From Marsupella aquatica (taxonomy: Eukaryota > Plantae > Marchantiophyta), in assembly GCA_973895155.1 (NCBI GenBank), contig OZ316897.1, positions 17,218,058 to 17,282,057 on the forward strand: a stretch of 64,000 nt of DNA, given 5' to 3'. Under the pieces are notes generated by a model. It was not told the DNA's origin. It made no database searches and saw only the letters and a program-made list of their open reading frames with translations. This document shows positions 1,066 through 58,027 of the stretch, one piece after another (the first letter of the stretch is position 1; each line of letters opens with the position of its first letter). Made by a program: the position numbers and the translations under genes.

Positions 1066-1409
1066 TGTTAGATATTGCTCTAGTCTTGTGACTCATGAGC
1101 TAACCACAGTTAGTCTAACTCGGGTTAGGACTTAGCTAATGTTAGTGGTAGTGCTGGTGTGCATATAGCCAGGGCTGATGCCAGACCCTGGTGGAACTTA
1201 GGCTCATTGTTACGGAGCTAGTTGAGAGATAGGGAGAGCTTGTGCTGTGGATGCTTGGTATGGCCGGTCGACCTAGAGTGCAGTAAAGCTCTTGTGTGTT
1301 CCCATGGACGTAGCCTCATGTGGAGGTGAACCACGTATCTCTCTGTGTCGATTATTGTGCGTTGGATGGTTCATGGGCTTGCAATTACGAATGTCGTCTA
1401 TGCTTAACA
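1066..1409 (+). mobile_element. Solo LTR (Copia-like), 344 bp
   Basis: Begins TGTTA and ends TAACA. A perfect 5-bp TSD, TAAAA, flanks it (1061-1065 and 1410-1414). Internal motif GGACGTAGCC...GGTGAACCACGTA is typical of plant Copia LTRs. Related copy at 35868-36252. Confidence 0.85.
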
Positions 1410-1564
1410 TAAAACGCCCCTATATTTCTTCAACAAAATTGTAAAGTCTTCCACGCATTAGAATTAAAAACCCCTAACTTCTTCGCATGCAATGGGTCGG
1501 AAGAACGGAAATGAGGACCCAAGATTTTTCCATTGTGAAGCTAAAGGAAATTTTAATTTACATG

Positions 1565-1750
1565 AGCATTGTTGTGGAATCCTATTTTTCAAAGACCATT
1601 GCTCTTGCTGTAAAAAGTGTTTTGACTAATTTTATTGTTATCGAGCTACTTAAGATTTTTCCTTTGGGGAATATTGTTGATGAATCATATTTTTCAGAGA
1701 ACAATGTTCTTGTCATAAAGAGCATCTTTTTTGCTGCAGAGCTATCGAAA
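1565..1750. repeat. Degenerate ~105-bp direct duplication
   Basis: ATTGTTG..GAATC.TATTTTTCA.AGA.CA.TG.TCTTG...GAGCTA occurs twice (~1568 and ~1673). Confidence 0.55.
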
Positions 1751-1851
1751 ATCATGTTATTCATATGACACTACTCTTGTTACAAGGAGTGCTTCAAGTA
1801 CTTTGCCACTAGGGAAGCTACATGAAATGTTAAATGCGCATCTTCATTCTC

Positions 1852-2844
1852 GAGATATATGCTTGATGGGCCCCTTGGTGAACCTTTCTTACCTGATGGG
1901 CCCCTAGGTAACTTTTTTTTACCAAGTCTCTTAATGACCAGTACACCTGTTCTTGTGTGGTGCCTACACCTGTCCTTGTGTGGTGCCTACTATGTATGGT
2001 GACTTCAAGCAAACTGCACAATTGAATTGTGCGGTCAACCTTGCATGGTCGATCGAGAAACCACAGAGATGATTCGGGAGAAACCGCGAAAAGCGACTGC
2101 CGCTGTCGAAACTATGATTTGAAGACAATATGCATTATGTCTTCGGATTCAATGGGTTAATGCCTGAAGACTCAATGGATTATGTCTTCCCGTGTTTCAA
2201 GGTTTAGGGTTTAGGATGTACCCCGACACTTTTGTGTCTGTCTTCTTTTGAAATTGTTTGTATGCATTGCACAGAGGAGTATTACCATTTTTTGAGCGCA
2301 ATTGTCAATCATTTGCCAATTTTTGTTGTGGCGGCAGTAGGCAAATTCTGAACATCGAACTTGAATATTCTTTGTGGACATTTGGAGGTACCCCACACTG
2401 ACGTTGACAGTCGTGCATGAAAACATCGTGAAAAACCCATGTGCGCAACGTGAAAAACATACCTAATAACTACCCCACGATACGGTAAAAATTTGAACCC
2501 GAAGACATAATCCATTGTGTCTTCAGGCATTAACCCAATGAATCCGAAGACATAATGCATATTGTCTTCAAATCGTAGTTTCGACAGCGGCAGTCGCTTT
2601 TTGCGGTTTCTCCCAAATAATCTCTGTAGTTTGTCGGTCGACCATGTAGAGTCGACCGCATGGTTCAACTATGCAGTTTGCTTGGAGTCACTGTACATAG
2701 TAGACACCACACAAGGACAGGTGTAGGCATCACACAAGAGCAGGTGTACTGGTCATTAAGAGGGGTCCTACTTGGTAAAAAAAGTTACCTAGGGGCCCAT
2801 CAGGTAAGAAAGGTTCATCGGTGGGCCCATCAAACATATATCTC
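1852..2844. mobile_element. Non-autonomous Mutator-like element (MULE) with ~340-bp TIRs
   Basis: 1852-2189 is the reverse complement of ~2502-2844. Termini are GAGATATAT...ATATATCTC. A perfect 10-bp TSD, CTTCATTCTC, lies at 1842-1851 and 2845-2854. The unique core is ~310 bp. Confidence 0.9.
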
Positions 2845-3231
2845 CTTCATTCTCTATTTCATAATTTTACATTCTTAATTTCAATTTTTGGTGTTATGTT
2901 TTTATAATTTGATGCACATTATGTTCTTACCCTGACAGAAATGTAGGTGGACAATTAATAACAGAATTGACCATCCATTTGCAGTTAAGCTGTCTCATGA
3001 TCATGTGTAATATGGTGTGTCCCCTGTCACTCAATGGGGATAAATGGAGACAACCTAAGAGTCCATCTGGGCTTTAGTTTCAACTTTATTTGATCAATAA
3101 GTTTACATGATCTATGCTTTTCGAGAGTTTTAATCAAATAAATCACATCTTACATAGGCCCACTACTTGGCATTTATGATCAGTGGACACCGGAAGTGAC
3201 TGGGCCCAGAGTCCACTCATTATATTCTCGA

Positions 3232-3600
3232 GGTAGGCACCACACCTGATTGGGCCCCAAGTTCTTGTAAAACGTAACGTAGCCATTTCCAATTCATGCA
3301 ATTATAGGTACACACCACACCTAATTGGGCCCCAAGTTCTTGTAAAACGTAACGCAGCCATTTCCAACTCATGGAATGATTGGTACCCACCACACCTAAT
3401 TGGGCCCCCAATTTTTGCAAAGCCAAGCCAGCCATGTCGACTCATTATAGTATTCAGGTAGTATCCAGCCATTTCGATTCATTATAGTATCAAGGTAGTA
3501 TCCACGTAGACACCATATCTGATTGGGGCCCCCGTTCTTGTAAAGCCAACAGCAAGGGAATAAAAAGACGGCAAATGGGCCCCACATCTTTGTAAAGCCG
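3232..3600. repeat. 75-bp tandem minisatellite (about 3 good copies plus degenerate ones)
   Basis: CACCACACCT(G/A)ATTGGGCCCC... starts at 3238, 3313 and 3388. Degenerate copies continue to ~3600. Confidence 0.85.
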
Positions 3601-4189
3601 CCCTTAATGACGACTGACCTGTAGATTGAGTGAGTTGTGCTACAACCAGGGTTTTTTTATTTGTTAAAAATTGTTAGATTCACACCTCAGTGCAAAGTCT
3701 TCGTCACTTTTGACTAAAATTAGCTAGGTTTTTTTGTTTTCCATTAGCCGGTTCCCCACCTAGCAGTAGACCCCAGTAGCCAGAATCCGAGGTTTCCTTA
3801 AATGTGGGATTTAACTGTCAAATATATTAGAATAAGATTAGATAAATATCATCCTTGTAGTAGCCACTTTTGGCCAGAAATTGTTAGGTTTTTTGGTCTT
3901 CGGTTTAAACATAGGTACAACCCCTATCAGCAAGAGTATGAACTTTTCCTTAAATATAGGTAGATCCACCTCCAGTAGCCACAAACCAATTATCTGACAG
4001 TTTTCTTCAATATCGTTAGATCTTAACTGTCAAAAGTAAATCTAAGGAAATTAATTAACTAATCTTCTTAGTGTCTTCACACGATTCGCCATTGGTCACA
4101 ACGAGAAAACCTTGAAAATTATCCTTGCTACCTTGAAAATTATCCTTGCTACAGATAACCACGATGGATCACACTATCCAGATGGACCA

Positions 4190-4560
4190 CCTTGTTGTAA
4201 ACCTCCCGTGGATGACATTTGGGTGGTCCATGGGAGTTTGAGGCTATAACTTGATGATTATGTGTCTTAATTAATAGCAAAACAACTAGAGAAGGAGGAG
4301 AAGTAAAATACACAAGCTAAATCTTTCATATTAACACAATGAAAATTAATTTGAATCAACCAAAACAGCCAAAAATGTAATTAATTTTAAGGTAAGTTAT
4401 ATTTTTAAAGTACTCTTGAAGGAAATATAACTTACCTACTCCTCTAGAGTATTTAAAAATAAATAAATGAATTTATGAATACAAGCTATTACAGTTTAGC
4501 TCAAATTTTGGGGAAGGTGGTCCATGGGGGTTTTAAAGACTAACCCTGTGCGCTATTTCC
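4190..4560 (+). repeat. Dispersed repeat family copy (probable non-autonomous TE)
   Basis: Colinear similarity to 33130-33500: GGTGGTCCATGGGAGTTTGAGGC..ATAACTT ... GTGGTCCATGGGGGTTT.AAAGAC. Confidence 0.65.
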
Positions 4561-5572
4561 AATATTATAGCGATGGAGGCCCTTGATCCAATCCAGGGGC
4601 TTTTAATTCACCTACAGCTGTTACCCAATTTTTAAGATTGAATTCTTGGGGAAGAGTAATTTTTAAGATTGACTTTTTGGGGAAGAGGAATCTGGACCCA
4701 TCTGTTTTGATTGAGATTGAAAAGTAGATAGATATGTGTTGAAAATTGTCACGACACACAGATGGACCATCTCTGTTCTCCTTTCTTTTCTGTTCACCAC
4801 CGGTCCAGACAATTTTCAAGTTAGGGGCTCTAATCCCATCATTGATTACTTTGTCATCAGTGCTCAAGTGGCAGAGCTTACGGAGAGACATTTACTTACT
4901 CAATTGAACCACAATTCAGAATGAGTGTGGGCAATTGGTTACTCAGGGTAAATAAAATGGAGGGTGGGCTTACTACTAATTGAACAGTCGGTTACTCAGG
5001 GTAAATAAAATGGTTATTTTTGAAACATTTTTACATCAAAGTTTATGGCATGGCGTCCCTCAATTTTACCAAAATTTTGCCACAAACATGAATGTTGAAG
5101 TAAATTTATTTTGTAAACCAAATTTTGCAGCACATCATAATGATGTGGCACGCTGTGGAGTCTTGAATTTTGGAAGGGACCTCTAGTGGGGTCCATAATA
5201 ATTCTTCCCAATTGTAGTCCGTCAGGGTTTTTTTCACTTTTTGGTCACATGGTTATAGGTTAGTAACCTATGAACAGATCTTCATTTTCCTGTACTTTGA
5301 GATGTTCTGGTGACACCTAGCAGACTCTCTTCACAGGCCGACCCTATTTTCAAATGCTGTGCACTATTCCCTGCACTACTTCAATCCCATCCCCATTTTC
5401 ACCCCCACCCCTAATTTGAATATTTTCCCCTAAGTCTTTGAGCATAAATAGAGACCAAAACAATGATTAAAGAACCATGCAATAAAAATGATTATACACT
5501 ATTGTTGGTTCAATTTTGTCCCATCTTTGTTTTTTGTCCACTTTATTTTTCTCTTTTGTTCTTATTGAGAGT

Positions 5573-5800
5573 ACTCTACACACTAGCCCTTAGCCCTCAA
5601 CAGTAGCACTGCGCTTTATCAGTAAGATGTTTAGTATGCCATGAGGTTTCACTCTACACACTAGCCCTCAGCCCTCAAAAGTAGCATTGCGCTTTATTAC
5701 TAAGATGGTTAGTATGCCATGAGGTTTCACTCTACACACTAGCCCATAGCCCTCAAAAGTAGCATTGCGCTTTATTACTAAGATGGTTAGTATGCCATGA
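5573..5800. repeat. 78-bp tandem repeat x3
   Basis: ACTCTACACACTAGCCC... starts at 5573, 5651 and 5729. Confidence 0.9.
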
Positions 5801-6101
5801 CATTAGTGACTGTAAAGCCTAATGCAAAAAAATTATCTAACCTGTGATAAAATTATGATCATTCCCATTTAGTAACTGTAAAGCCTCCTGCCCTAGTGCA
5901 AGAAAATTACCTAGCCTGTGATAAAATCTAGCCACGATTACCCAAACCTAGTAATTGTGAAGGTTTTGAGGCTCCCCTAATGATACCCCAAATCTTCGAG
6001 ATGCCCCAATGATACCTCAGAACCCAACTGGGAAAGTGATACGTGGGAAGGTCTGAACGAATGATACCCAAGCACCGAACTGGAAAGTCTGAAGTAGCGA
6101 T

Positions 6102-6130
6102 GGATATGCTCGTGAGAGGCCAGTATATCC
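6102..6130. promoter_or_regulatory. Pair of P1BS (PHR1-binding, GNATATNC) motifs
   Basis: GGATATGC at 6102-6109 and GTATATCC at 6123-6130. They lie ~250 bp before a CT-rich leader-like region upstream of a purple acid phosphatase, a family known to be induced by phosphate starvation. Confidence 0.5.
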
Positions 6131-8828
6131 GGATCATTCCCGATTGACGCACTTCCATGCACAGCACGAGCATTGCACCCTGTGCTGTACATTGGAAAAA
6201 TAGTATTATTATTGCACCCTGTGTGAAAAAAGAGTATTATCAATTTATTATGTCACTGAAGATGCTTCTTCTTTCAATTACGCAATCGATCTGACGTACC
6301 AGAGCGTAACCCACCTTTTCGCCGGGGAAAAGGGAGTTCGAATTCCCGTCTTTCCTCGTGCTTTTCCTCGTGCTTTTCCTCGTTGCTGAGTTGATCTGTC
6401 TGAGTGAGAAGAATTCCAGCAGACACTTTGTTGTGAAGTCAGATCGCTCGAGTCCAGTCTCCCCTTTGAAGCCGCCCTTGGGTTAATTGTGCTTTTCCCT
6501 CCTGAATTTCGGTCCTCGCAGAATCGACACTTCTGTGTACAGTAGTGGTGTCCTTCATCATTTATGGTTGATGTTGCTTTGAGTTCCGAGGCAGCAAGAA
6601 GCTTCGTGAATGGTGGAGTTCAGTTCCTTGGCGGCAGGACCAGAAACAGCTGGCGACATTTTGTTCAGGTAACGGATGCTTGCCAGAATGTGGGCGTTTA
6701 CCAGTGGAGAGCTGATTCACAGGAAGAATTGTTTTCTTTTGCTGGAGGAGAGAGAGAGACGTACTGTTGTTCAGAACATTGTCCGGCAAATAATTAGTAA
6801 ATTAATTGCGAAGCGGGGCAATGATGGTCGATGGTGCACAGGCGCCGGTATCATCAGGGGGAGGAGATATTCGATTGCTTTGCGTCCGTAAAGAGTAATT
6901 TGTTGGGTGGGGTGGGGCCACGATGCTACTTGTTGGCGTTGGAACGCGAGATCGATCGATGAGATTGTGGTCTCTGATCACTTTTGCAGGCCGGGCTTTG
7001 CATTTTTGCTTGATCGTCGAGCTTGCGGCGACTGCAAGCCCTGCCTAGCCCTGGACGGGTGCATGTCGCTGATCGCCCACGGGAGGGAGGGCGGAAGAGG
7101 AGGAACGCACTTAATTATTGCATTGGATTGGGCGTCTTTTCTACCTCTGTCCTCTTCATCCGCTTTCTGAATCAAGTACGACATTAAGAAGTCCGGCAGC
7201 TTTTAATCAGCTCTCGCTGATCTGGAAAGCGGTCAAGTCGAGATAGATCTCGAGCTTGAATCCAGCTCCTGGGCCGCGGGGCGGTGGAGGCGTCTCCTTG
7301 GTTGCAAGATTGATTTCTGAGTACGTAACGTGTGGTTCTTACATTTCTTTAACCTCGTGCCGTCTTCCTTCATTGTTCTTTCCTAATCCCTCTCCTTCTT
7401 CAATCTTGTCGTTGCTTTCCAACTTGTGGAAAGCCGGAGCTCGTTTTCATCGTAGGAGTTTTCCAGTCGACGAATTTTGGGTTACACTGTGTTGGAAACT
7501 GACGGATTAATGGTGAAACTTCATGAATCGGGGAGAGTAGCATCAATTGAATCTGGAATCTTTTAGAAATGGTAGCTCGTGAATTACCGTTCGGTGCTCT
7601 CCGGGGGGAAGGACAGACGAACGGGGAAGCTTACACGTGTTGTAGTTTCAGGTGCGGCTCCTCCTTGAGCGACTCTATGCATGATCTTAGTTCGCCCGGT
7701 CTGGCGATCACCTTGATAAGTTGTTATCTTGTAGTTTTGTTTTTCGCAGACTTTTGAAATCAGTTGTACTGTCCCACTGTCCTCAAGATCACACAAGTGA
7801 ATCTGTTGAATCTTTGAATTGAAGCGATGGCGCTAAACACTAAACCATGGGACTCCTGTCGATGGTAGAGGGAAAGTGTCGTTGCCTCTGAAGCCATCCT
7901 TCTCGGGATTGTTTGCTAGTGTCTTACTTATCATGATTGAAGAACCCACCTGCGTAACTGGATGGGACGCGGACACTACCAGAGGACGGATCAACGATGA
8001 TCTTCCTGAGAAACTCCGTGGGATGTCACTCACGGTCTATTATCAGCCTTCTCCTCGAGTACGGTAGGGAGCAAGCTAAGGTCGCTTTTCCTCACGAGAC
8101 GCTGCAACATATGAGCGTTTCAGATTCGACCATGAAATAGAGTCTTCTTGACGTCGAAACTTTCACCAGAATTACCAAATTATCACATGAGCTTGTCATT
8201 CTAAGAAATCGACCAGGGAAGTTGAGAAGTTCGAGCTCTACGGTTAGGAAGGGCGCCCAATTTCTGGAATGTTAGTTTGCGAGCGACTATCTCAGTTCTT
8301 CGACAGAATTGTATGAACAAACTATCTCAATTCTTCGATGTGGCTGGTAAAAGAAATTGCGGAAGGAAGGATATTTCTAGAAACCTTCACTGATCTTGAT
8401 TCGATTTGACCTTCTCCTGATGGTCTGCCGCACAGACCGATGACTTGTAGGTTGGTAGTGAGTCCTAGAGATGAAGCCCCCAAACATTGTGCCGTGATAT
8501 CAAGAGCACAGGTCGATCAGACAGGACTGATGTTACTAGTCAGTAGGATTTCATTCACTTCACTGGTCACTGAAGACTAGTTCTGTGGGACAGAGTGGGT
8601 AACAAGTCTGTCTGATGAATGACATTTGTCCAGGTCTGCCTAGGAATCACGAAGTTTTTATGCACTTATATAACGCCATCTCAATTGTTGTTTTCACACA
8701 GATGGTGACTTAGCGCTGATCAGCTCCGCTTCACTCACCAGATTGAAGCAACGGTCGCTCTCACTGCTCTACATCTGCTTCATCTTGACTGATTCGGACG
8801 ATCGAGTGAACAAAAAAGGGGTTTCAAG

Positions 8829-11800
8829 ATGGGAGATTTGAAAGATGAAGAAATCGGCCTCCTCGCAGAAGAGGTACGTATGTTCCTTGGGCTGCACTCC
8901 GATCCCTCATCACGGCTTCCTTTCAAGCATTATGTTGGTTCCACATATGAGCGGACGTGTGCGTGTCTGTAATTCGTGAGAGAACGTCGCTAAGGTCTAT
9001 ACTCGATCGCGTTCATTTGCTCCGAGTTTGTTCGGAAACTAGTATCGCTTCAATCGTCCCCGCCTTACTCCACAGGTTTGTGATGAGAACGGGATCCGTG
9101 GTGCTATTTGTAGGCTTCAGTTTGGCGCAGAACACCAATGCTTTGGCTGAATTGGTCCGTGAAGTCCCTCTCAGTTTGACTGAAAATTTCAACGATCGAT
9201 GAGTCTTCGGTTAGAGTAAATTGTAGTGTCGATGAACGGGAATGGTAATTTAGAGTGTCGCTTCAATGAACTGTGTCTGTCCTCATTCCAACAGTTATGG
9301 GCAGTGGTCTACTGTGTGAAATTTCAAACTTCTTCGTAGGTTTCGTTGAGAACTGAATTCATGAACATGCCCATTGCGACATAAGGGAAGCTGAAAGGTA
9401 ACCCGTTTTTGATGGTCAGAGCCTCGATGAAGAATTCCACAAGACCTACCAAAATTTCACAGAGCAGATGAACCTTGAGTTCCTTGCAGCCTGCCTAAGT
9501 TGGCATTAGCACTTCCAAAGCACCACTTCATAATATTGCTATCACGGACCGAGATCAGGATTCTTGACCGCTGGTTGTATCACTTGTCTTTAAAATGAAT
9601 CTGCCAATTGCGTTTCTCTCTCCTAATTGTGTGCACGGAGGCTCACCAATTCCTGTGAATGGTTTCAATTAGCAGGCGGGGTCGACGGCGGAAATAGTTG
9701 CGGCATCATCCTCCCGGAATGCATCCAGGAAGACTTCGACCTGGTCAGTGGCGATGACGCTGCTAATTCTTGTGGGCCTATTGGCCGTGATTTTCACCAT
9801 TTTCCATACTGAAGAGTACACCCATGAAATGGAGGTCATGGAGAGGAGAGAAGCTTGGAGGGCGAGGAGAGACGCTTTGCAGGCCCCCTTGAACGTGCTC
9901 GTCGTGGGCGACTGGGGACGGGAAGGCGAATACAATCAAACTCTTGTGGCAAACCAGGTACCCTTCTTTCGTTCCCTCAGCCTCTTCTACCCGGCAAACA
10001 GTTCCCAATCAAGGGTGGAAAACATTTAAGCAGCGCGCTGACATTCCGCACTTTTGCAGATGGGTAACGTGGGGAGACAGCTGGACCTCAACTTTATCAT
10101 CTCCTCCGGGGACAATTTTTACGATTCCGGTTTGGACACCGTCCAGGATGAGAAATTCGATGAGTCGTTCTCGGAAGTCTACACGGCTCCCAGCTTGCAG
10201 AAAACGTGGTATGCAGGTTGAGGCTCCGTTCCTCCCTCCCTCCCTCCCTCTCACACAAATGACTTTCTATCTCGCTCTCTGCCTCTTGCAGATTCTCTCT
10301 GTTCCTGAGATGTTGAGTGTCTTTAGGCAACCTTTGCATCTGGATTCCATGGTATTCCTATTGGCAGTAGCATAGAATTCTGGAATCCAAAGCTTTTAGA
10401 GTGCTTTGCCTTTGAAGTCAAGGTTGCATGTGTATGTGGTAAGACACAAGAGAAACGTTCACGTCATTTCATACGGCTATACTCCTGATGAAAACCTCAA
10501 TTTTCCCTTTTGATTGCATTACAGTGAACGATTGATTCAATTTAGAAGGAGAATTCGATGATTAGCATGCAACCTAGTCACTAAAATATGAGTGCTTGTA
10601 TTATCTGTCATTGCAGTGTTAGGCAATCATGATTACAGAGGAAACCCACAAGTTCAAGTGGACAAGGTTTTGAATAGCCGAGACTCCCGTTGGGTCTGCG
10701 ACTACACGTACACGCTCTCTGTCGACCTAGGCCATTCCTGTCATGGTATGCATTCATTTTCTTTCATCCCCGACTCTCCTCCGAATGCTGTCATGAAGGC
10801 TCCACTTTGCTCTCTGACTGCTCTTTGTAATCTGACCCAACTGGCTGAATTTCATCGGCCACAAAGAGTCACACCTCTGTCCAACAATAAGAGGAACACT
10901 TCTGAACATAAATCTCACACTTCATGAGATAATTCTGGTCATCGGAAGAGTCCTTTGACCTTGTAACTGAAGAGCACTAGTTTTGTGCTGCAACTCCTTT
11001 CACAGATAATTCGTCTGTAGAAGCGTCGCTCTTAATGTTGGACGGAGGAGGTATGTGATTTCCTCAGCAAGCTTCCTGGGCATGAGCTAGCATGAGCCCC
11101 CGGTGATAACAAAGCTTCAATCTGTGTTGTATGACAGGAAGAAGAAAGGATACTGGGTCACTCTACGCAGAGTTCTTCTTCATTGACACAAATCCTTTCG
11201 AGGAAGATTATTGGACTGACGACAACGAGCATTACACGTGGACGAGGCCAATTCCACGAGAAGTGGTCATTGCCAACCAGCTTAAGGTATTGCCTTTGTA
11301 GGCTTTGACTCATCCCGGTGTCCAGCACCTATTGCCCTTCGTGTTGAAAAAGTCGGAACTACATTACAAAACACCTGCTCCAAGCTAATTTCTTCAGTCT
11401 AACGTGGAATCTCACTGGGTGCGAACAGAATCTGACTGAAGCTCTCGAGACTTCAACAGCAACGTGGAAAATTGTGGTTGGTCACCATACGATGTTCAGC
11501 TACGGGCCCCACGGCAACACTCCAGAGCTAATTCAGAAGGTCTTACCGATATTGAAGGTAGAAACAGCTTGTGACATCCTCTGTTCTGGTTGGCTGATTT
11601 CAAGGGTTTCCACCGGTCAAGTAGTTCTGTCGAGTCCTCTGATCCTAGGATGAGCATCTGCAATGAGGGTGCACGCTGGATAATTCGTGACCATAAGTTT
11701 ATTCAACGTTGTTTTGTTTTAGGCGAACAAGGTCGACTTGTACGTCAATGGACATGATCATTGCCTCCAAGACATCAAGCGGGCCGACAGGTAATGTGAC

Positions 11801-45023: not shown

Positions 45024-46601
45024 CTACCATCTGTCCCTTGGTCTCTCAATCGTTGCAACTTCAGGTCTTTGAAGTCTGCTTTCCGTCAGTCTAGGGCGTA
45101 AGTCTTTATAGGTCTTCGCTAGTTTTCGTGGAGATGGAGCATAAGTCCTAACAGGGATCTCTGCGTCATTCATTGAACTTTCATCACCTTCTCTTTCGTC
45201 CTCATCGGACAATTCATCGTCACTCTCACCTTCTTCATCCTCATCAAATTGGTCATTCCAGTCGCCATCTTCATCTTCATCATCATCGTCCTCATCCTCA
45301 TCACCTTCTTCGCCTGCATTTTCTGATTTCATGGCTTTGGTCCGAGCATGCACAAGCGCGCTCAGGCGCTCCCTTGCTAAAACCAGAGGATCCTTGTCTA
45401 CGAGTTCTGAACCTTGGTAAGCTTCACGAAGGAAGACGGAATCCCTGTGGCCCTTGAATGAGACGTAAAACATTTCAGGATGGCGGATGAGCGTAGCCCT
45501 GATTCTCTGTGAGAACTTGAAGTCCTTTTTGAAATGGGTGAGATGGTCCACCAGGGTCTTCTTCTCCAAAGTCATGCTCAAGAGCTCATGCACAGTTGCA
45601 CATGCTCTTTTTTCTGCTTGTATAGAAGCCGGATCCAAATCTGTTGCATCAGAATAAGGTGACACGTACGGAATCTGCTGAAACCTCAATGCAACTACTC
45701 TGTCCTTCTTGGCAAGGTTCAAACCTTTCGGCAGATTCAGCCTTTTGTTGCTCATTTGTGTTGGAACTATTTCCTCCCCATCTATGACAATTCTAGTTCT
45801 ATCATCCACTTTGTTAGCCTCCGCTGCTGCTTTCTTCTGTGCAGCACAAATCGCCAACAGCGGGTCCCAAAAAGTAAGCTCTAACGCAGGCCCAGTCTCT
45901 GTTTCAACAAGCTTAAAATACTGGGGGTATTTAGGTAGGATACTAGTTCTGAAGTCCTCAGGTAATCCCAAATCATTTTTTATGTGGGCAATTTTGTCGA
46001 TCGTAAGCCTCTTATCCAAGGACATCATCAACAATTTCCTTAGCTTTTCTACGTGGAATACTTCCAAATTTGCTTTTATCCTCAGCTCCTCTTCGTACTG
46101 AGCTTCAGCCTCCTCTGTGAAGCGCACGTACATTACATTGCAGCCTTCCTCGTAAACCTCGAACACAGCCGGATACTTGTTTAGGAGAGCGATCACTCGC
46201 CTCCTTCCCGTCAATGCGAAATTCTTCCTATACTTTCCCAGCTGCAGCAGCGTCATCGTCCGGCCCGGCTGCTTGATCAGAATGTCCTTGATCTTATTGA
46301 CAATCCTCACCTTCTTCTCTCTTTGGACGACATTATCAAATGCGGAGTCCTTCCTGCGCTTGATTTTTGCCCGGGCGCCTAGCGATCGGCTGGGATTCCA
46401 AATCCCATACGCAGGGAAGGTAACACATTGCAAGCTTTGTGTGCATCCGAAAAAATTCGGGCGAGTGATCCGGACCGTGGTCTCGGAGGTGCAGGGCAAA
46501 CCTGATGATGACAGCACGCCGCTCCTACCAGCAGCCGAGAAGAAACGAACCGCCGAAGCTGCTGATAGCGCCCTCGTCAGTGACAACCTGAACGACGCCA
46601 T
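45024..46601 (-). CDS. WTF1: PORR-domain organellar RNA-binding/splicing factor, WTF1 type, intronless
   Basis: KRRKDSAFDNVVQREKK, KLRKLLMMSLDKRL, DLGLPEDFR, GPALELTFWDP, PYVSPYSD, AEKRACATVHELLSMTLEK and RHPEMFYVSFKG, followed by an acidic C-tail. First ATG at 46601. Confidence 0.9.
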   Translation of the reverse strand: MASFRLSLTRALSAASAVRFFSAAGRSGVLSSSGLPCTSETTVRITRPNFFGCTQSLQCVTFPAYGIWNPSRSLGARAKIKRRKDSAFDNVVQREKKVRIVNKIKDILIKQPGRTMTLLQLGKYRKNFALTGRRRVIALLNKYPAVFEVYEEGCNVMYVRFTEEAEAQYEEELRIKANLEVFHVEKLRKLLMMSLDKRLTIDKIAHIKNDLGLPEDFRTSILPKYPQYFKLVETETGPALELTFWDPLLAICAAQKKAAAEANKVDDRTRIVIDGEEIVPTQMSNKRLNLPKGLNLAKKDRVVALRFQQIPYVSPYSDATDLDPASIQAEKRACATVHELLSMTLEKKTLVDHLTHFKKDFKFSQRIRATLIRHPEMFYVSFKGHRDSVFLREAYQGSELVDKDPLVLARERLSALVHARTKAMKSENAGEEGDEDEDDDDEDEDGDWNDQFDEDEEGESDDELSDEDEREGDESSMNDAEIPVRTYAPSPRKLAKTYKDLRPRLTESRLQRPEVATIERPRDRW

Positions 46602-47294
46602 TGCTGCCAATCCTCAAAACCCTAAACCCTGCCAATCCTCCACAAATCTCCTCCACCTCCTTGTTTTCAGTTTTCCGCACTCAATATTCCCGAGCGAAAT
46701 GAGGGCTCTCTCTATAAAAAGTGCTCCACCTCCGCAGGAGAAATCGCTCGGGACGGGATGAAACGGTGGTGGGATTCTCAATTTTTGTCAGTTGCTTGTT
46801 ACACCATGACAATCGGGAGTCCCGATTGCCGCAGACAGATTCAAGTGAACTGCAGGCGCCGTCATTGCAGAAATTCCAGTACCACAAATTCAAAGATCGG
46901 TGAATTCAAAGATCACCGAATGCTCAAAAGGCCCTCTCTGTGCTTTGCCGACAAGGTTTGGACACAATCTCTGTGCTGGGTTTCGACACAATGTTTCAAC
47001 CAAGTGTGGGACGCAGCGAAAGAAACCGAGACAGAGTGTGAGTAAATCGATTGAGCTCAGATTTCTTTGTAGGACCTTGAGAAAACTTGCTTCGACCTGG
47101 TTGCGAACGACTTGCACGAGACAGAGTAGTAGTAAACAATTGATGGAGCTCACATTGCTGTGCGTAGTTTCAACACGTTGCTTCAACCTATTAGTACTAG
47201 TGAATGGAGCAAAAAATAGCTCGCTCCCACAACCAAGTGGCTTTTGGTCCTATTACCACTAGTGTGGTTGCAAAGGAATTGAGCAAAAAGAAGG

Positions 47295-49780: not shown

Positions 49781-51199
49781 TAGAAATGAATTGTTGAATC
49801 AATGAACGGGCAATGGCCTTGAATGTACTCATCTCTATTTACATTCAAAGAATCTTCAAACTTTATTATAGCAATAAAAGGATACTTGTTAAGGCCTCTT
49901 GTATTTATGTTTCTTCTTTTTAAGAAGGGAAATCTATGAAACCCCAAAGAAAGGAAACTGTTAGTCACAACATTTGAACTTTAGACCGATGAATCTTGAC
50001 TCAAGTGAGCTACCACACAACAATGCCTCTCTGGGCTAAGGGCATCTTGTAATGAGTAAAGGAACTCCTGTGTAGAGTGAAAACTCTAGACCGTGACTTT
50101 GGGGGCAAAATTGAAATTGGGGGTGCATCAAAAACAAGGATTGGGGGCAGGGTGAGTCTCTCAAATTGGCCAATTGAAAACTGAACCAATGAATGGGCAA
50201 TGGGCTTGAATTTACTCACCTCAATTTACTTTCAAAGAATTGAACCAGCATTCACACTAGTGTGTACTAGGGTAGTTACCAATGCACGGCTTGGAAGGGT
50301 TTACCTATCTAACTATACAATCATGATTAAAAACTACTCTTTAGGGCCTACTGTCCAAAGTTAATCTTCTAGACGCAAGTCTAAAGACATGGGGAGTTTG
50401 GGTATAGGGAGTCCTGCATGTGCATAAGCATGGATATTCAGACTAGTGGGTTGTAATCCCCAAGGCTGGTGAGCTCGAGGGGGTTATAGCCATGGGTTAG
50501 CTAGCAAGCATAACCCCCAACACTCTTTAAAAAATCATTTGAGAATCAACAACTTTGGGTGAAGAGTATGACACTTGGAATCCACTCTAGCAAAGTTAGC
50601 AAGGGATTAGAGCATCCCCACCAATCACGATGAACTCAACTTGGTGTTGTGGTCAATGGTGTTGTGAGTAGCAGGCCCAATTAGGAGTCCAGACCAGCTC
50701 CTGAATTGTTGCACCCGGGGTTGCACCTAATCAATGGGGTAAGATGTGTTGGTGACAGCTTGCTCTCAGATAGTTCACTTGCAGATGGCAATTGTATGAA
50801 CACTTTCACAATTTACTTCAAACAGGGACTTCCAAGCTTGAAGAAGACATACCTCACCGCACAAGCTTTATCACAGGAAAAAATTGATTCCCCTTCATTG
50901 ATCCAGGCTTTTGTGTGCTGCATGCTAGAAAAGGCTAAACTTGAGATAGTGATCATAATACTTGGACAAATTTTGATCAACAAATATTTGCAATGGAAAT
51001 TCAAGATGACTCCTTTGCAACAATGGAGGAGGAGATTGAAGTTGAAGATGGAAGAAACCCAACAAGAATGGGATGATGACCAAACCCGGTGGGAAAGCAT
51101 GACAGTCACAGGCCCCTTGGCATGGACAAACCAAAACCATGGTGCATCAGGGGAAAAAGAAAGAGATGCATCAAGGCCAGACAAAGGTTACAATATATA

Positions 51200-51851
51200 A
51201 TCAAGATAGAATTGTCAGCAATCAATGCATTCCGAAGAGTTATGTGTATCGACAAGCATTTAAAGAGGTGCTACATTACAAATCAACCACGGTGGCAAAT
51301 CCATGATTGAGTGTGTGCATATGACCTATGTTTCATCTCTAAGTGAGATTCAACAAAGGTACTTGACATGTCCTCCACACAAATGACCAGACCTTTGCAT
51401 ATGCTGGGGCATTGGTGTGTCTTTCCAAGGCTTTGTATACAAGTATGTGAGAAATAGGGAGAGCACAACTGTGAAATCATTGAGACAGTTATGTGTTACT
51501 GATCAAATTATTTTTTAGGAGCATCTTTGACAGCCCACAAAGGAGGATGTGGAGACTCAATTTTGGATCAATGAGAAGCATGGATTCTCTCAGTCTCATT
51601 TTGCTTCACTTGATTGTATGCATTATAAGTGGGAGAAATGCCCAATCGCTTAGCAAGGATTATTCACCAACAAGGACGTGGCCAAACGTATTATGCTCAA
51701 GGCTGTTGCCAACCAATCCATGCATGTGGATCTAGCATGCCCACTTTGGATTGTTCTTGGGGGGGCAAGGGGGGGGGGGCAATGTCATGAATATGCTTGC
51801 TTGGTCTCCATTGATGAACAATCCGCTGCAAAATGCTCATCATGTTCTACG
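51200..51851 (+). pseudogene. PIF/Harbinger (Pong-like, DDE_Tnp_4) transposase pseudogene, interrupted by the tyrosine-recombinase element
   Basis: Translates as KHGFSQSHFASLDCMHYKWEKCPIA*QGLFTNKDVAKRIMLKAVANQS...HAHFG...SPLMN. This matches the family pattern GSIDCMHWxWKNCPxAWxG...IILEAVAxxDLWIWHAFFG...SPL. Possible continuation (DVNGH; IIIHNAMV) at ~56020-56415. Confidence 0.75.
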
Positions 51852-51858
51852 TATAGGG

Positions 51859-52003
51859 TAACGACGATCTGGTCGACCGTTACTGGGGTGTAACGGGGCG
51901 ACCGGGTTCTGACACAGGTGTGATCGGCGGTAGCCGATCACGCCTGGGGAGGAAACCGGGAGGATCGGTACACCCCAGTAATGGACGGCCTGGATCGTCG
52001 TTA
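51859..52003 (+). other. ~145-nt imperfect hairpin at the left end of the element
   Basis: Nested paired blocks TAACGACGATC/GATCGTCGTTA, CCGTTACTGGGGTGTAACG/CGGTACACCCCAGTAATGG, CCGGGTTC/GAAACCGG and CAGGTGTGATCGGC/GCCGATCACGCCTG, around a GGTA loop (51929-51932). Confidence 0.85.
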
Positions 52004-52451
52004 ACGTACGTAATCGCGATCTAGGTTTCAGGTTCACCGGCTCATGAAGGTTAAAACAATTCCAGGTCATTGGATCGAAGAGACGCTGTATCGGGACCGT
52101 CAATTTGATCGTAGCGAAGGTGGGAGGGGGTATTCTGCAAATCGGGTGGGCTGCAGCTATTTCGTCATGACGTTGAACGAGGTAGAGTTGGGAGGCAGCG
52201 AAGCGCTGTGCGATCCGGCGGGGCAAGGCCAAGCTCGGAGACTACAGACTACAGCGATGCGCGATCCGGCGGGGCGAGGCAATGCAATGGCGATGGTGGT
52301 GGTGAAAGCTTGGAGATGGTGGCGGGATGGAGCGCGGCGCGTTTGAGCTGGTTTCAAACCAAACGCGACTGTGTTGCAACCAGGGGGAGCCTTACATTTT
52401 CAGTTCTATTTTGTTTGAATTTTTGCATGCGCCATGCATTGTTTGCAGATC

Positions 52452-54847
52452 ATGGATAGCGGGGTGGAAGCAAATGCAACATTGAAGTGGAGCGTCGTTA
52501 TATCGTTCGATTGCTTGTTGTTGAGTTGTAGTACTTATGCATTGCTACGGATGTTGAGTAGTCAAATGGCTGTAGCGACTAAGCAACTTGTGTCGTTCGG
52601 AGTGATCTGTGAAGTAGCTCGTATGAAGATGGAGGGAGAGTTAAGCGATGAAGTTGTTCCTGGCGATTATTCAGACGCTGAGAGGGAGATGTTTTATATG
52701 GATGATTTGAGTGTTGGTGGGGAGACTTGTGACCTTTCAGAGTTTGATTCGGCCACTGCATTTGACGAGGCATCTATAGAAGCTGTTTCTTTGGATGTTT
52801 TGTCTACTTTGGTCGAGCCTGATCGAGAGCTTGTCAATGAGGTTGAAAGTGGGCTGCAGGTTATTGAGCAGAACCATTTGGATCAAGCGGCTGCAAGTTC
52901 GTCCACCTTGAGGCAAGATCTAGACGTGGAAGTAAGCCTGCCAGGCTTGAGACTCCTGCCTGATCCTGCTTTAGAGGAAGCAGGCCGAGGACTGGAGAAG
53001 TTGTCGTCCGAACGGAATGATCAATGGGCTGTTAGGAGGGCAGACGGGTTGCGGAAGGGGATGGGGTGGGACTTGAGTATTGCATTTGGAGACTTGTCAC
53101 TTGTGCAGGTGGACGAGTTGCTCAGCAACTATTTTGCTCGAGCAGTGAAGAAAGACGGTAATGTTTACCCATCATCTTCACTCATGAACCAAATGAATAG
53201 CTTCAATCGAGTGTTGAGGCGAGGGAGTGATCTGAGATCGCTGAAGGGCTCTTCTTACATTATGCCGAGAGATTTCAACATCAACTCACATCCGGCTTTC
53301 TCAAGAACTCGAATGGTGCTGAAAGCTGCCATCAAGAAGTCTCCAAGGGAGGGGGCTAACAAGAAACGAAAGAAGGTGAGAGTTGTCAGCTTGCATTGCC
53401 TTTAAAGATGTCGTGTGCTTGTAGATCTATTCTGCTGCTTCTGACTTTTGGATGTTTAACTGATCCAGGTTGAGATATTGACAGAGGAGCACGAGAAATC
53501 TATTATGGCTGACATTGACCACCAAGTGACAAGCAGCCATGGATGTCAAAAGCGCTTGGCATTTTACTGTTTGGTCAGGTTTGGCATCCGTGGAGGTGGC
53601 GAGCTCTATGACCTCCATAGAGGCGACTTATCTGTATGCATTGACAAGGCAGGAAGAAGCTATGTGCAGTAAGTGTTTTCTGTTCAGGTGATATTTATGT
53701 TTATGAGATGTAACTTTGTTGTATCTGTTTCTTGTGTGCCAGTGATACTAATAAACATTTGAATTTGTTCAGGTTCGAGGAGCGCCAAAGTAAGAATAAC
53801 TCTTACACGCTCGATCGATACAACGAAGAGCAGTTTAGAAAGATGTATCATAGTTACGAAGTTGATTTTGTGCTGACTATTAATCAGTACAAACGCCATT
53901 TATCTCCAGAAGCAGAGTCGTCAAAGCCTGACCTCTTTATGCAGGCGATTACCAATCCTGCCGGGAATGTTTGGTATAACAAAGTCCACAAGGTAGGGAG
54001 AGATACTGCTGCTCATTGGCTTAAGAATATGTTGGCGCTGGTGGGGCTGCCCCCTAATCTTTTTTCCAACCGAACTGGAAGGACCACACTAATCTCTCGA
54101 CTAGCTGCAAAAGGAGTCCCTGATGTGGTTGGTATGCTGATTAGTGGGCATCATTCAACCAGAGGTTATTCTCATTACGACAGAACTCAAGAACTTAAGA
54201 TGGAGGCTGCAGCCCTGGTCTCTGCTAGTCCAGGCCTTGATTATGAGAAGGCTCTTGGACATGTTTCGAAGTCTTTTGTCCAGGAGAAGCTTGTTGGATC
54301 ATCCGAGGGTCTGAAACCCCTTGTTGACAGGGTGAACGAAAAGGCTAATGTGCAGCCTTCACTCATGACACTTGTACAGGTATGTTCATGAACTTTGATT
54401 TGTTTGTGAGTGAGTTTCTTGGTATTGTTTCTAATGGAAATTTCGTTGGTTGGCAGGGATGTACCGGTTTGAGTGGAGTACTAGGAGAAACATCAGCAAG
54501 AGCTTCACAACAGGTTTGTTTCTACCTGTTTCAACTTTCGGTTGCTGCCTGTCTAGCAAGACTGAGATTAATGTTTGTTTTGTGTGTGGCAGGAAGGAAG
54601 CCACGTTGTTGGGGATATGTTATTACAAAGAACAGATGCTGCCAGATGGGATTCGTCCTATGACATAATTGATTGGGTGGGCGAGTTGTTGAAGCAGAAC
54701 CCTTTGCTTCACGAGAGAATTTCAGGCCCACCACTAGCCAGAGTTTCTGTGGGTAGCAACATCTCTGGAAACTCCTTCCACAATTGTTCAGTATCAATTA
54801 AAATTGTCAAGGCAAGGGAGGATGAGAAGGAGGACGCAGGCCCGTGA
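52452..54847 (+). CDS. Tyrosine recombinase, DUF3504/Crypton type, 5 exons, reading frame intact
   Basis: Exons: (start uncertain, 52452 or 52623)-53375, 53469-53668, 53773-54379, 54457-54513 and 54593-54847, with four short GT-AG introns in consistent phase. Motifs: YFARAVKKDGNVYPSSSL (core-binding), FGIRGGGEL (catalytic R), ERQSKN (K), SNRTGRTT (HxxR position), ISGHHS (H), GYSHY (nucleophile Y), and C-terminal FHNCSVSI as in animal DUF3504/Crypton proteins. Confidence 0.85.
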
Positions 54848-55204
54848 TATTTTAGTTAGTGATATTTTACTTAGTTTTCAGATATTTCAGTAAAGTAGCA
54901 TTAGCAGGAAATAACAGTAAGTAGAAACATTGTACATATAAGGAATTTACTGATATGGCTGTATCGGCTGAATCAACACACCTATGTACAGCAAGAATGG
55001 TTTTACTATTCGATTAAACTTTGCATGACTCCCTTGAATAAAGTGGAATTTTTTAGTACTTTACTTCTTCCAAATCACTATTTGGGTTCAATGCTAAAAG
55101 TGAATAAAAGTTTTACGACTGTGAACTCAGCATACACAAAGCTGAAACATCAAATCATACCCTATTCTGAAACCCCTTGTTGACACAAGCCTATTCCGGA
55201 CCTA

Positions 55205-55395
55205 TTGAAGGATGGAATATGCCAATTGAATGTACACGTATGGACCCACGTATGGATGGAAAATGTGTTTTGGATGGAATATGTTTAAGGTGGATGAAAT
55301 ACTAATTTTCCATCCGGTAGTTATGGGTTCTGTAGCTGCATTACGGGATTCCGTAGCCAGGTTACAGAGTTCTGTAGCCCATGTTACAGAGTTCC
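55205..55395 (+). repeat. Subterminal arrays: GGATG(G)AA motif x4, then 3-4 ~21-bp palindromic units
   Basis: GGATG(G)AA at ~55210, 55254, 55272 and 55292, with an inverted copy at ~55308. Units: GTTATGGGTTCTGTAGC, ATTACGGGATTCCGTAGC, GTTACAGAGTTCTGTAGC, GTTACAGAGTTCC. Confidence 0.75.
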
Positions 55396-58027
55396 AAAAC
55401 GTCAGATGTGTCAAGAAGGCAGATTACGAGAATACAAGGGACCCCCAAAATAGGGTTACACGCAGGTAACCTGAAACCAAGACCGCGATTACGAGCCCTA
55501 TGCTAGTGCTTTGCACTGTGCAAGGAGGGCCAGGGCATTTATGGGGCAAATCAAGAGCAAATGCGTGCGTCAGTGCAGTAGGCCAAAGTCAAGTGGAGAC
55601 ATGGAGTGGAGGGCGAGGCTGGACTTGCTTGGCTGCTTTCTGCTTTCTGCTTTCATACATTGGGAGTCATCGTTGTTGGGACGGAGGCATCGGTGGGAGG
55701 CTGGGAGCATTCACAAGGGAGGGAGATGGATAAGGTAGAGGGGGGAGGCATAATGAATGCACGGAGTGGAGGTTTCGACATGGGGCCAGTATTGAAGATT
55801 GTATTGTCAGGCATGGGAGCCCTAGACAGAGACAGAGAGGATGGGCCGATGCGAGGTGATTGAAGACGGTATTGTCGGGCATGGGAGCCCTGGCACGTGA
55901 ATCGGATGGACACGCAAAATCTGATGCCTGTATCTAATGGTCAATTTTGATTTCCGCCGAAATTGAAATTTGTAACGGGACGAAGGACGAAATTGGCAGC
56001 ATTGCCTATTACAGTGTTAGATGTCAATGGACATTCGTAAAGGGCTAGGTTTTATTTTCTTTCCATCAACTCACCACAACACTTCCCACATAAGATTTGC
56101 CCAGGAAAAATGGCTGTCCCGTGGTTGTGTATTGGTACAATGGTGTGTCTTATCTTACGTCCACCTTCGTAGGAAGAAATTTTAAGTAGCACTCCCCTCT
56201 CTTGCACTCGCACAAACCAGTGCCCTCATAGGGAACAACCAGTTCACAAGTAATGAGTCTGGTTGACTTATCAGGTGGGGATGGAAAGCAAAGTCTATCT
56301 ATATTATGTTTAGTACTATCCTATTAATAGGGCATTGTGGAATGCATACTGCCATGATGACGGATGGCCTTAGCTTGAGTTTTGACGAGCTATTATTATC
56401 CATAATGCTATGGTAACAAAGTTAATACACTTAATGGTCTAAGAGAATTTAGTGCTTACTAGTCAGTAAAAGCGAGAGAAGATTTCATAGTTAGTTATCC
56501 AAATCTTGAATGTGCATTTTTCTCCACAAATGTACTGAAAATTACAAAGAGAAAAATCACCATAGCCTTTGAGTATTGTAAACAGGCCACACTTGACTCA
56601 ACCAGCAATTCGTTGAGTTCAAAATTTGTCAAAATCCACCCTGTTGAGAAAGGTTTGCCACAAAGCATAGCAAGAGCTTTCAAATCTCATTAGCCAGTCT
56701 CCATCCAAGGCACAGGGCCCATTGGCAACCATGTAGCTGCTCTCCTGAAGTCTAGGGAGATCTAACACTGTAAAACAAATCTAGGGAAATGTTAATAGAG
56801 AATATTTCTAGCAATTTTGGGGCCTCAAGAATGTGAGCCTTTATACAAATGGAAGATACTATTTAAGTTCAAAGTAATGTTTACAAATGGTCCATACAAG
56901 TTTTTGTCAAATATTGTGGTTCAGCCATTTGCCAGCCTAAGTGAATTAAATAACCCTAAGAAAAGTATTGGAACTCCACCTCATCCAGAAAGCTTTGCAA
57001 GGGGCAAGTCTCCCACCAAATCTGAGGGCTCTCTCAAATCATGGCAGACCGAATGGTCAAAATAAGTCTATAAAATTTCAAAGGGTGGTGTCAAACCTCA
57101 GATTAAATTGGACCTTGATTACAGTAAGTAGTTAAGGTTTGGGACAGAAAATTTATGTACTACCTATTCAATTCACGATCCATAACTTTTTGCAATATAC
57201 AGGCTAGTGAAAATGAAATGAAATTTTCACATAACCCTTTGAAAAAGGTGTAGCCACCATCGGTAAGTATGAAGCTTTTAAACGCAAGATTCCAAACATC
57301 CAGTAGTCTCCAGACTGTGGTAGTGTACACGTTACAGTCTACGTAGTACTACTACAGTAGTCTGTCTCAGCGCTCACCGCTTACTCACCTCACCACGCCT
57401 GACTCCCTGACTGACCTGTCTGTCTGCCTGTCCGCCTGCCGCCCAGCGTCGTGACTCCTCGTTCGCTCGTTCGAATTGGAATCGAACGAGATCCGATCGT
57501 TGACAGAACGAACAATAATAACGCCTCCACCTCGATAAACGTACGGCACTTTCGCCTCGCCACCAGATTTGCGCGGCCTTCGCCATCTCCGCCGTCCACC
57601 GTATTCCAATCCAGCGGTCCCGAGAACGCCACCACGCCCCCGTTCCGAGGTTCCGAAACACAGCAACACAGCATGCAGGCCTGCAGTAGTAGTAGTGGAA
57701 CGGGGGGACTACGACCGTCGACGGGAGCCGCCGGTCTCGAGCGAGCGCGCCGCGAAAGGAAGAGGAGAGCGGAAAGAAGGGGTGCTCATTCGGAGAGCGC
57801 GGACGGAGGATTTCGAAGATCGACGGGGGAGGTGTGAGTCGAGCGAGAAAGAAGAAGGCGAGGAAGGGGAAAGAGAGGAAGGGGGGTGACGGGGTGATCG
57901 ACTACGGTAGAGAGGTGAATGGAGGGGAGAGGAGGGGAGAGGAGAGTGCGAGAGAGAGTATGTCGACGAGGAAGAGGAGGAGGCGGACTGTACAGTAGTA
58001 GTAGTAGGAGGGACGGACGGGCGGGAG

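Follow-up and report, generated by a model that had tools for sequence, protein, structure and literature searches.

A 64,000-nucleotide (nt) stretch of the genome of the liverwort Marsupella aquatica (assembly GCA_973895155.1, contig OZ316897.1; hereafter the window, whose positions serve as coordinates throughout) carries a pair of ~30-bp inverted repeats placed asymmetrically around a predicted tyrosine-recombinase gene. The pair is real but not free-standing; it is part of a multicopy 3.64-kb element, a Crypton-type tyrosine-recombinase DNA element of 3642 bp at 51850 to 55491 (+), delimited by contigs and by a junction score. With somewhat better than even confidence, we read the pair as the outermost portion of a mirror-image copy, inside the element, of the joint that would form between its two ends, and the element as likely to fold one strand into a site for its predicted recombinase. 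This mechanism is drawn from the geometry of these sequences and from two known systems, CTX attP(+) and integron attC; of it, only the geometry and the folding energies were computed.

The repeat pair and the ends of the element

Sequence comparison of 52009 to 52038 with 55465 to 55493 agreed with the first-pass annotation of this DNA, which had described the two stretches as reverse complements with two substitutions and one indel. A repeat search lists the 52009/55465 pair as 26 nt at 92%, and the local alignment score of the pair, 44, was reached by 0 of 200 dinucleotide shuffles of 51850 to 55505 (mean, 23.9; maximum, 35). The left copy (52009 to 52038, +; repeat search plus alignment) begins, as had also been described, where a long hairpin closes; the left end, at 51850, is 159 bp away. 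This imperfect hairpin (51850 to 52008, +) has arms at ~51850 to 51928 and ~51933 to 52008 around a 4-nt loop, and 51848 to 52010 folds at −62.4 kcal/mol (z, −9.8), with 0 of 200 shuffles as stable. The right copy had been placed ~8 bp short of the end; the contigs instead put the end of the element at ~55491, at the tip of this copy, because a separate high-copy unit begins at 55490 to 55494. Within the element, the right copy is the terminal 27 bp (55465 to 55491, +), and its last two letters, CG (55492 to 55493), double as the first letters of the neighboring unit. The small palindrome GGTTAC-ACGCAG-GTAACC noted earlier was located at 55454 to 55471 (no strand assigned); its arms match the 12-bp box described below in their last four letters only. 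A near-copy of the left-end motif (ATAGGGT-A/T-AC) lies at 55450 to 55459, 40 bp inside the right end and in the same orientation.

The ends were read from contigs of four public runs (X1 to X4) aligned to window positions 50800 to 56500; the best 15 of 20 joints, 24 of 473 loose ends, 40 of 653 differences, and 32 of 1560 pieces were used, and contigs lose rare forms. Two further runs, X5 and X6 (shares of 0.07 and 0.04), were left out. Left-flank contigs stop at 51877 in three of the four runs (X1, X3, and X4); with an assembly word length that we take to be 31 letters, this stop suggests that other copies share 51848 to 51877 and differ at 51847. Branching across that interval, together with diverged contigs, indicates several copies, and the sharing of sequence from 51848 on, outside 52009, leaves the earlier suggestion that the pair marks the ends of an inner element unsupported. 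X3 and X4 also contain a diverged version of the flank, a paralogue in which 51849 is followed directly by sequence resembling that from 56022 on (21 of 26 letters agree, counted by eye), implying that the whole of 51850 to 56021 was inserted; this is the sole empty form seen, and it lacks both the recombinase element and its neighbor. The flanks themselves (51360 to 51849 and 56022 to 56480) are halves of an older repeat, and the paralogue spanning the empty site in X3 and X4 is ~88% alike.

On the right, the start of the neighboring unit at 55490 to 55494 is marked by loose ends in all four runs, with 10 to 29 contigs with unrelated flanks per row, and depth is 1299 to 8908 in the bin 55384 to 55574 versus 57 to 315 in the preceding bin. 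In one X2 contig, the final 28 letters of the recombinase element occur a second time, with a break exactly after 55491. A 4-bp direct repeat, TACG, stands at 51848 to 51851 (+) and at 55490 to 55493 (+), the CG of the second copy being common with the neighbor. The left TACG is probably common to other copies, but the X2 contig at the right end breaks after TA. The putative crossover at each end is TA|CG. Repeat searches and open reading frames (ORFs) revealed no terminal inverted repeats, long direct repeats, or reverse transcriptase in 51850 to 55491, and no second copy of the element or of its ends was found within the 64-kb window. In the X2 contig, over 55455 to 55491, the terminal stretch is repeated in tandem and joined directly after the terminal TTA, possibly as a product of self-insertion or aberrant recombination.

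Two other delimitations were rejected. A right end at 55501, which would create a 6-bp ATAGGG/CCCTAT terminal repeat, relies on bases that sit in the high-copy neighbor, and a single 4172-bp element spanning 51850 to 56021 is at odds with the dozens of unrelated flanks and the separate Helitron-like ends of the part from 55492.

Internal complementarity to a predicted circle junction

When 55491 was joined to 51850 in silico, the left hairpin arm continued the right copy to form one arm of ~108 nt, for which the right hairpin arm and the left copy together (51933 to 52038, +) provide an internal complement. The two align with 84 paired, 20 mismatched, and 4 gap columns at a score of 92, which peaks at 55491 when the left end is held fixed; the integrated left end scores 56, and none of 11850 other right ends exceeds 66. 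High scores are to be expected close to a repeat; it is unexpected, however, for the left copy to meet the hairpin at the very point where the left end placed by reads pairs, and for the right copy to terminate at the right end placed by reads, both ends having been set independently of the pairing. The asymmetry of the pair is explained in this way, since the pair is the outer part of the internal complement of the predicted circle junction.

A box search added finer structure. Across the junction the arrangement is 12-9-12, with boxes at 55480 to 55491, in the right copy, and at 51859 to 51870 (−), at the left end, around a 9-nt spacer (51850 to 51858, +) that falls within the interval probably common to other copies (51848 to 51877). 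The internal site is 12-7-12 (51992 to 52022, no strand assigned), comprising a box (51992 to 52003), a spacer (52004 to 52010), and an inverted box (52011 to 52022). Each box pair is symmetric at 8 of 12 positions, which 1.2% of element positions match, and the box consensus has four exact and four one-mismatch matches in the 64 kb. In the reconstructed target, a spacer of 7 nt separates TA from TA, and the box symmetry is at most 5 of 12; being without comparable symmetry, such a target would suit a one-sided exchange. Since each copy of the pair ends in a 12-bp box at core-site geometry, the copies are likely to contain recombinase-binding sites, as the first-pass annotation had proposed. 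Its designation of them as arm-type sites is unsupported, because the boxes flank the putative crossover and no folded arm-binding domain is evident in the structure model of a relative of the recombinase (P0001, described below).

The main rival, and the one closest to that earlier idea, is that the internal 12-7-12 site is an extra double-stranded DNA site for the recombinase (accessory, autoregulatory, or synapsis aiding), that exchange is of the ordinary two-strand kind, and that the complementarity follows from repeated sites. We regard this as unlikely, though it has clear attractions: the internal site lies ~430 bp upstream of the first ATG and fits the textbook geometry of 11- to 13-bp arms and a 6- to 8-bp spacer (PMC3212892; this and the other sources cited here were available in part, and statements citing them are limited to those parts), and Starships, whose circles have now been detected, mobilize via a circle that is sufficient for integration (10.64898/2026.09.21.753150). 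However, the complementarity extends over ~108 nt, well past the boxes, and keeps its collinearity across the joint, the mismatches within it are strand biased, and a 9-nt junction spacer facing a 7-nt right-end spacer is ill suited to two-strand exchange. It had also been suggested that 52009 to 55493 is an invertible segment, and the internal site and right end are indeed inverted box-spacer sites. Inversion by the recombinase of this segment, or of the hairpin interior, is nevertheless the least probable of the readings considered and hardly credible: the two 7-nt spacers agree in their first 2 letters only and differ in the other 5, the right end is without a second box, and no strand-changing joint occurs among the 15 of 20 joints listed.

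The strand bias is seen both in folding energy, −88.7 kcal/mol for the top strand and −74.8 kcal/mol for the bottom strand, and in the mismatches, with 13 purine-purine and 1 pyrimidine-pyrimidine (p, 0.005 to 0.011). Among the differences listed, three variants fall in the pairing region: two are adjacent (the two-letter variant at 51964 to 51965 in X3 and X4) and improve the fold, to −96.1 kcal/mol, while the third would, unless compensated, break a spacer pair.

From this geometry, the preferred reading, that the element folds one strand, can be set out as a reaction. The top strand would fold, in a circle or in a cruciform, and the 9-nt spacer would pair with the 7-nt spacer to give a bulged site like that of CTX attP(+), where a 150-nt hairpin brings together inverted sites whose centers measure 12 and 7 nt and a single strand pair is exchanged (PMC3089051). 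The recombinase would then swap one strand at TA|CG with a double-stranded target needing little beyond TA-CG, and replication or repair would resolve the resulting junction. Within the chromosome, the internal complement could act as a splint for the two ends of a single exposed strand, yielding a single-stranded circle and copy-out transposition.

Several observations weigh against this reading. No circle or head-to-tail junction is present among the 15 of 20 joints listed, the contig listings contain no right-end flanks of other element copies, and neither a replication protein nor a helicase is encoded in the element to make the single strand. Judged by alignment alone, a joint shortened by 2 nt would be preferred (left, 51854; right, 55493; score of 99 versus 92), so the register of the junction rests on the reads. 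The box consensus derives from the same four boxes that it describes, and the bias of G-T over A-C mismatches is weak (5 to 1; p, 0.11). A G-to-A change at 52010, in one contig in each of the four runs, would break the pair with 51850 unless compensated, and no compensating change at 51850 appears among the 40 of 653 differences listed. One copy, seen in X3 and X4, diverges from the window over 51934 to 52004. Covariation across families is uncountable, as four scans for related loci found none.

Some of these points would also fit a functionless relic, in which the circle junction was duplicated in inverted form long ago and later copies inherited the result: the arms are only ~78% complementary (84 of 108 columns), one copy diverges over the right arm, and one has A at 52010. 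We find this improbable, because the box positions next to the spacers and 14 loop-side pairs are kept while other parts diverge, the mismatch types are biased, the gene is unbroken, and the copies are close. The hairpin was also considered as a substrate for protelomerase-type resolution; this was rejected, as such resolution needs a near-perfect palindrome and the hairpin arms are imperfect.

The recombinase gene and comparison with known systems

The only gene in the element is predicted to have five exons separated by GT-AG introns and to encode a stop-free product of 680 amino acids (aa); no other long ORF was found in the element, where the minus strand has at most 130 codons between stops. 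Exon 1 (52452 to 53375, +) has 52% identity over 203 aa to the relative P0001; exon 2 (53469 to 53668, +) carries the catalytic Arg in GIRGG; exon 3 (53773 to 54379, +), with 61% identity to P0001, carries the Lys in SKNN, RxxR, His, and Tyr; exon 4 (54457 to 54513, +) was predicted from GT-AG and frame only; and exon 5 (54593 to 54847, +) has 35% identity to the C terminus of P0001. In the spliced prediction, the motifs GIRGG, SKNN, SNRTGR, SGHHS, and YSHY would supply R, K, RxxR, H, and Y. At an E value of ≤0.001, 128 representative relatives were found, the nearest named ones coming from Calypogeia fissa, a liverwort (61% over exon 3), and others from Adiantum ferns. Together with a PORR-domain gene elsewhere in the window, these relatives point to a land-plant host and probably to a liverwort. 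The structure model of P0001 is confident over ~212 to 575, where its best match is Cre (E, 5.5e-7), and its N-terminal 210 residues are of low confidence.

Pfam returned no match for three window exon ORFs or for P0001. Among 40 relatives, 9 match DUF3504 (PF12012) at an E value of ≤0.01 (best, 9.9e-39) and 15 match the phage integrase family; in profile searches, a profile of 40 sequences matches QRICH1 at 1.5e-18 and one of 17 rows matches nothing. From its sequence, the encoded protein is a predicted tyrosine recombinase that lies near the DUF3504/CryptonA group and may belong to it. Metagenome scans for related loci with exon 3 (178 pattern matches) and with alignment A4 (41 matches) gave no confirmed locus, and neither did two viral scans (11 matches and 1 match). 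One Adiantum relative, P0069, combines PPR repeats with a match to recombinase exon 3, which may be a gene-model fusion or a capture.

The element resembles Cryptons in gene content and short direct repeats (PMC3212892, PMC13465315, and PMC8969392). As in CryptonA/DUF3504 elements, including Glomhoppers (PMC3212892 and PMC13465315, in the parts available), it has an intron-containing tyrosine-recombinase gene as its sole gene, no reverse transcriptase, no terminal inverted repeats, and a 4-bp direct repeat at its ends, and its relatives match DUF3504 and QRICH1. In the same parts of those sources, by contrast, animal CryptonA elements are without terminal repeats, no hairpin or junction complement is reported, and the named hosts are animals, fungi, stramenopiles, and a green alga, whereas the present host is a land plant. 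The HxxR motif is replaced here by RxxR, and in most relatives by KxxR. In the literature covered, no Crypton has a junction complement, and none is described from liverworts or ferns; Repbase Reports and figures, where Crypton end structures may be described, and the paper of Goodwin et al. 2003 lay outside that coverage. Crypton traces are also known in humans (PMC5753468). The locus contributes a multicopy and apparently intact example, from a land plant, in which the site geometry can be read.

Membership in DIRS fails, although the logic of the ends is that of the internal complementary region (ICR) of DIRS-1. Both have an internal stretch complementary to both ends and a tyrosine recombinase (PMC6681497 and PMC8969392, as far as available); here, however, there are no reverse transcriptase/RNase H or gag ORFs and no inverted terminal repeats, introns are kept, and the complement lies at the 5′ end, continuous with the terminal hairpin, rather than at the 3′ end. 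A DIRS-like retroelement that has no reverse transcriptase of its own, with the complement splinting the ends of cDNA made in trans or the hairpin acting in RNA, would account for that shared logic, and the top (sense) strand also folds best as RNA (−154.7 versus −133.6). We judge it very unlikely, given the four GT-AG introns kept, the lack of long terminal inverted repeats and of any other long ORF, a recombinase nearer to DUF3504 proteins, and only two Rfam matches, both far below threshold. Identity with Replitrons (PMC10288648, in part) was rejected, as no HUH protein is encoded.

Two bacterial systems bear on the folded strand that we favor. Like CTX attP(+), the element has two inverted sites ~100 to 150 nt apart with unequal centers (12 and 7 there, 9 and 7 here); unlike it, the element encodes its own enzyme, whereas CTX uses host XerCD, a dif target, and a single-stranded phage genome (PMC3089051). 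Integron attC sites resemble the reaction predicted here in having a folded single-strand site, strand bias, unpaired bases, a double-stranded partner, and replicative resolution; they differ in being bacterial, with an integrase that is encoded apart from the cassettes and carries an I2 insertion, and no attI platform is present here (PMC4792948).

If the proposal is correct, a reaction described for bacterial integrons and the CTX phage would extend to a eukaryotic transposon. Active Chlamydomonas Cryptons show clean excision yet gain copies (PMC9977147, in part); Crypton movement has been modeled but left open, and a folded single-strand donor would explain the combination. The wider proposal, that DUF3504-type Cryptons in hosts as distant as animals and non-seed land plants move in the form of folded single-stranded DNA, with an internal complement splinting both ends for copy-out, is one we hold tentatively, at slightly under even confidence; the design would then represent both a DNA-only forerunner of the DIRS ICR and a eukaryotic counterpart of CTX attP(+)/attC recombination. 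The present copy makes the idea directly testable: the element is 3.6 kb long, its predicted gene is unbroken, and the boxes, the spacers, and the position of the cut are all predicted exactly. The locus also puts Crypton-type elements that are multicopy and apparently intact among the non-seed land plants.

The neighboring unit and minor features

The high-copy unit that abuts the recombinase element is Helitron-like and 530 bp long (55492 to 56021, −), with a 5′ TC, a 3′ hairpin followed by CTCG, and a position between A and T. Helitron hallmarks are a 5′ TC, a 3′ hairpin with CTRR, and insertion between A and T (PMC8969392, in part); the TC at 56021, the hairpin, and the A/T insertion fit these, whereas the 3′ end reads CTCG (CTTG in other copies) and not CTRR. 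Although it lies outside the recombinase element, this unit supplies the right half of the element's target. The target was formed by the 3′ end of the unit and a host TA, and such ends might be preferred targets, on the evidence of one case. At 56761 to 56773 (+), a second copy of the unit's 13-bp 5′ start (TCTAACACTGTAA) follows an A and faces away, probably belonging to a related truncated unit.

Within the recombinase element, four imperfect tandem units of 21 to 22 bp, each a small palindrome, occupy 55318 to 55403 (+), and small hairpins occur in the 3′ region at 55060 to 55117 and 55254 to 55315 (sub-threshold Rfam microRNA match; inverted repeat). A perfect 20-bp direct repeat links 54310 to 54329, in the exon 3 region, with 55166 to 55185, in the 3′ region. 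Elsewhere in the window, an intronless PORR-domain gene lies at 45024 to 46610 (−).

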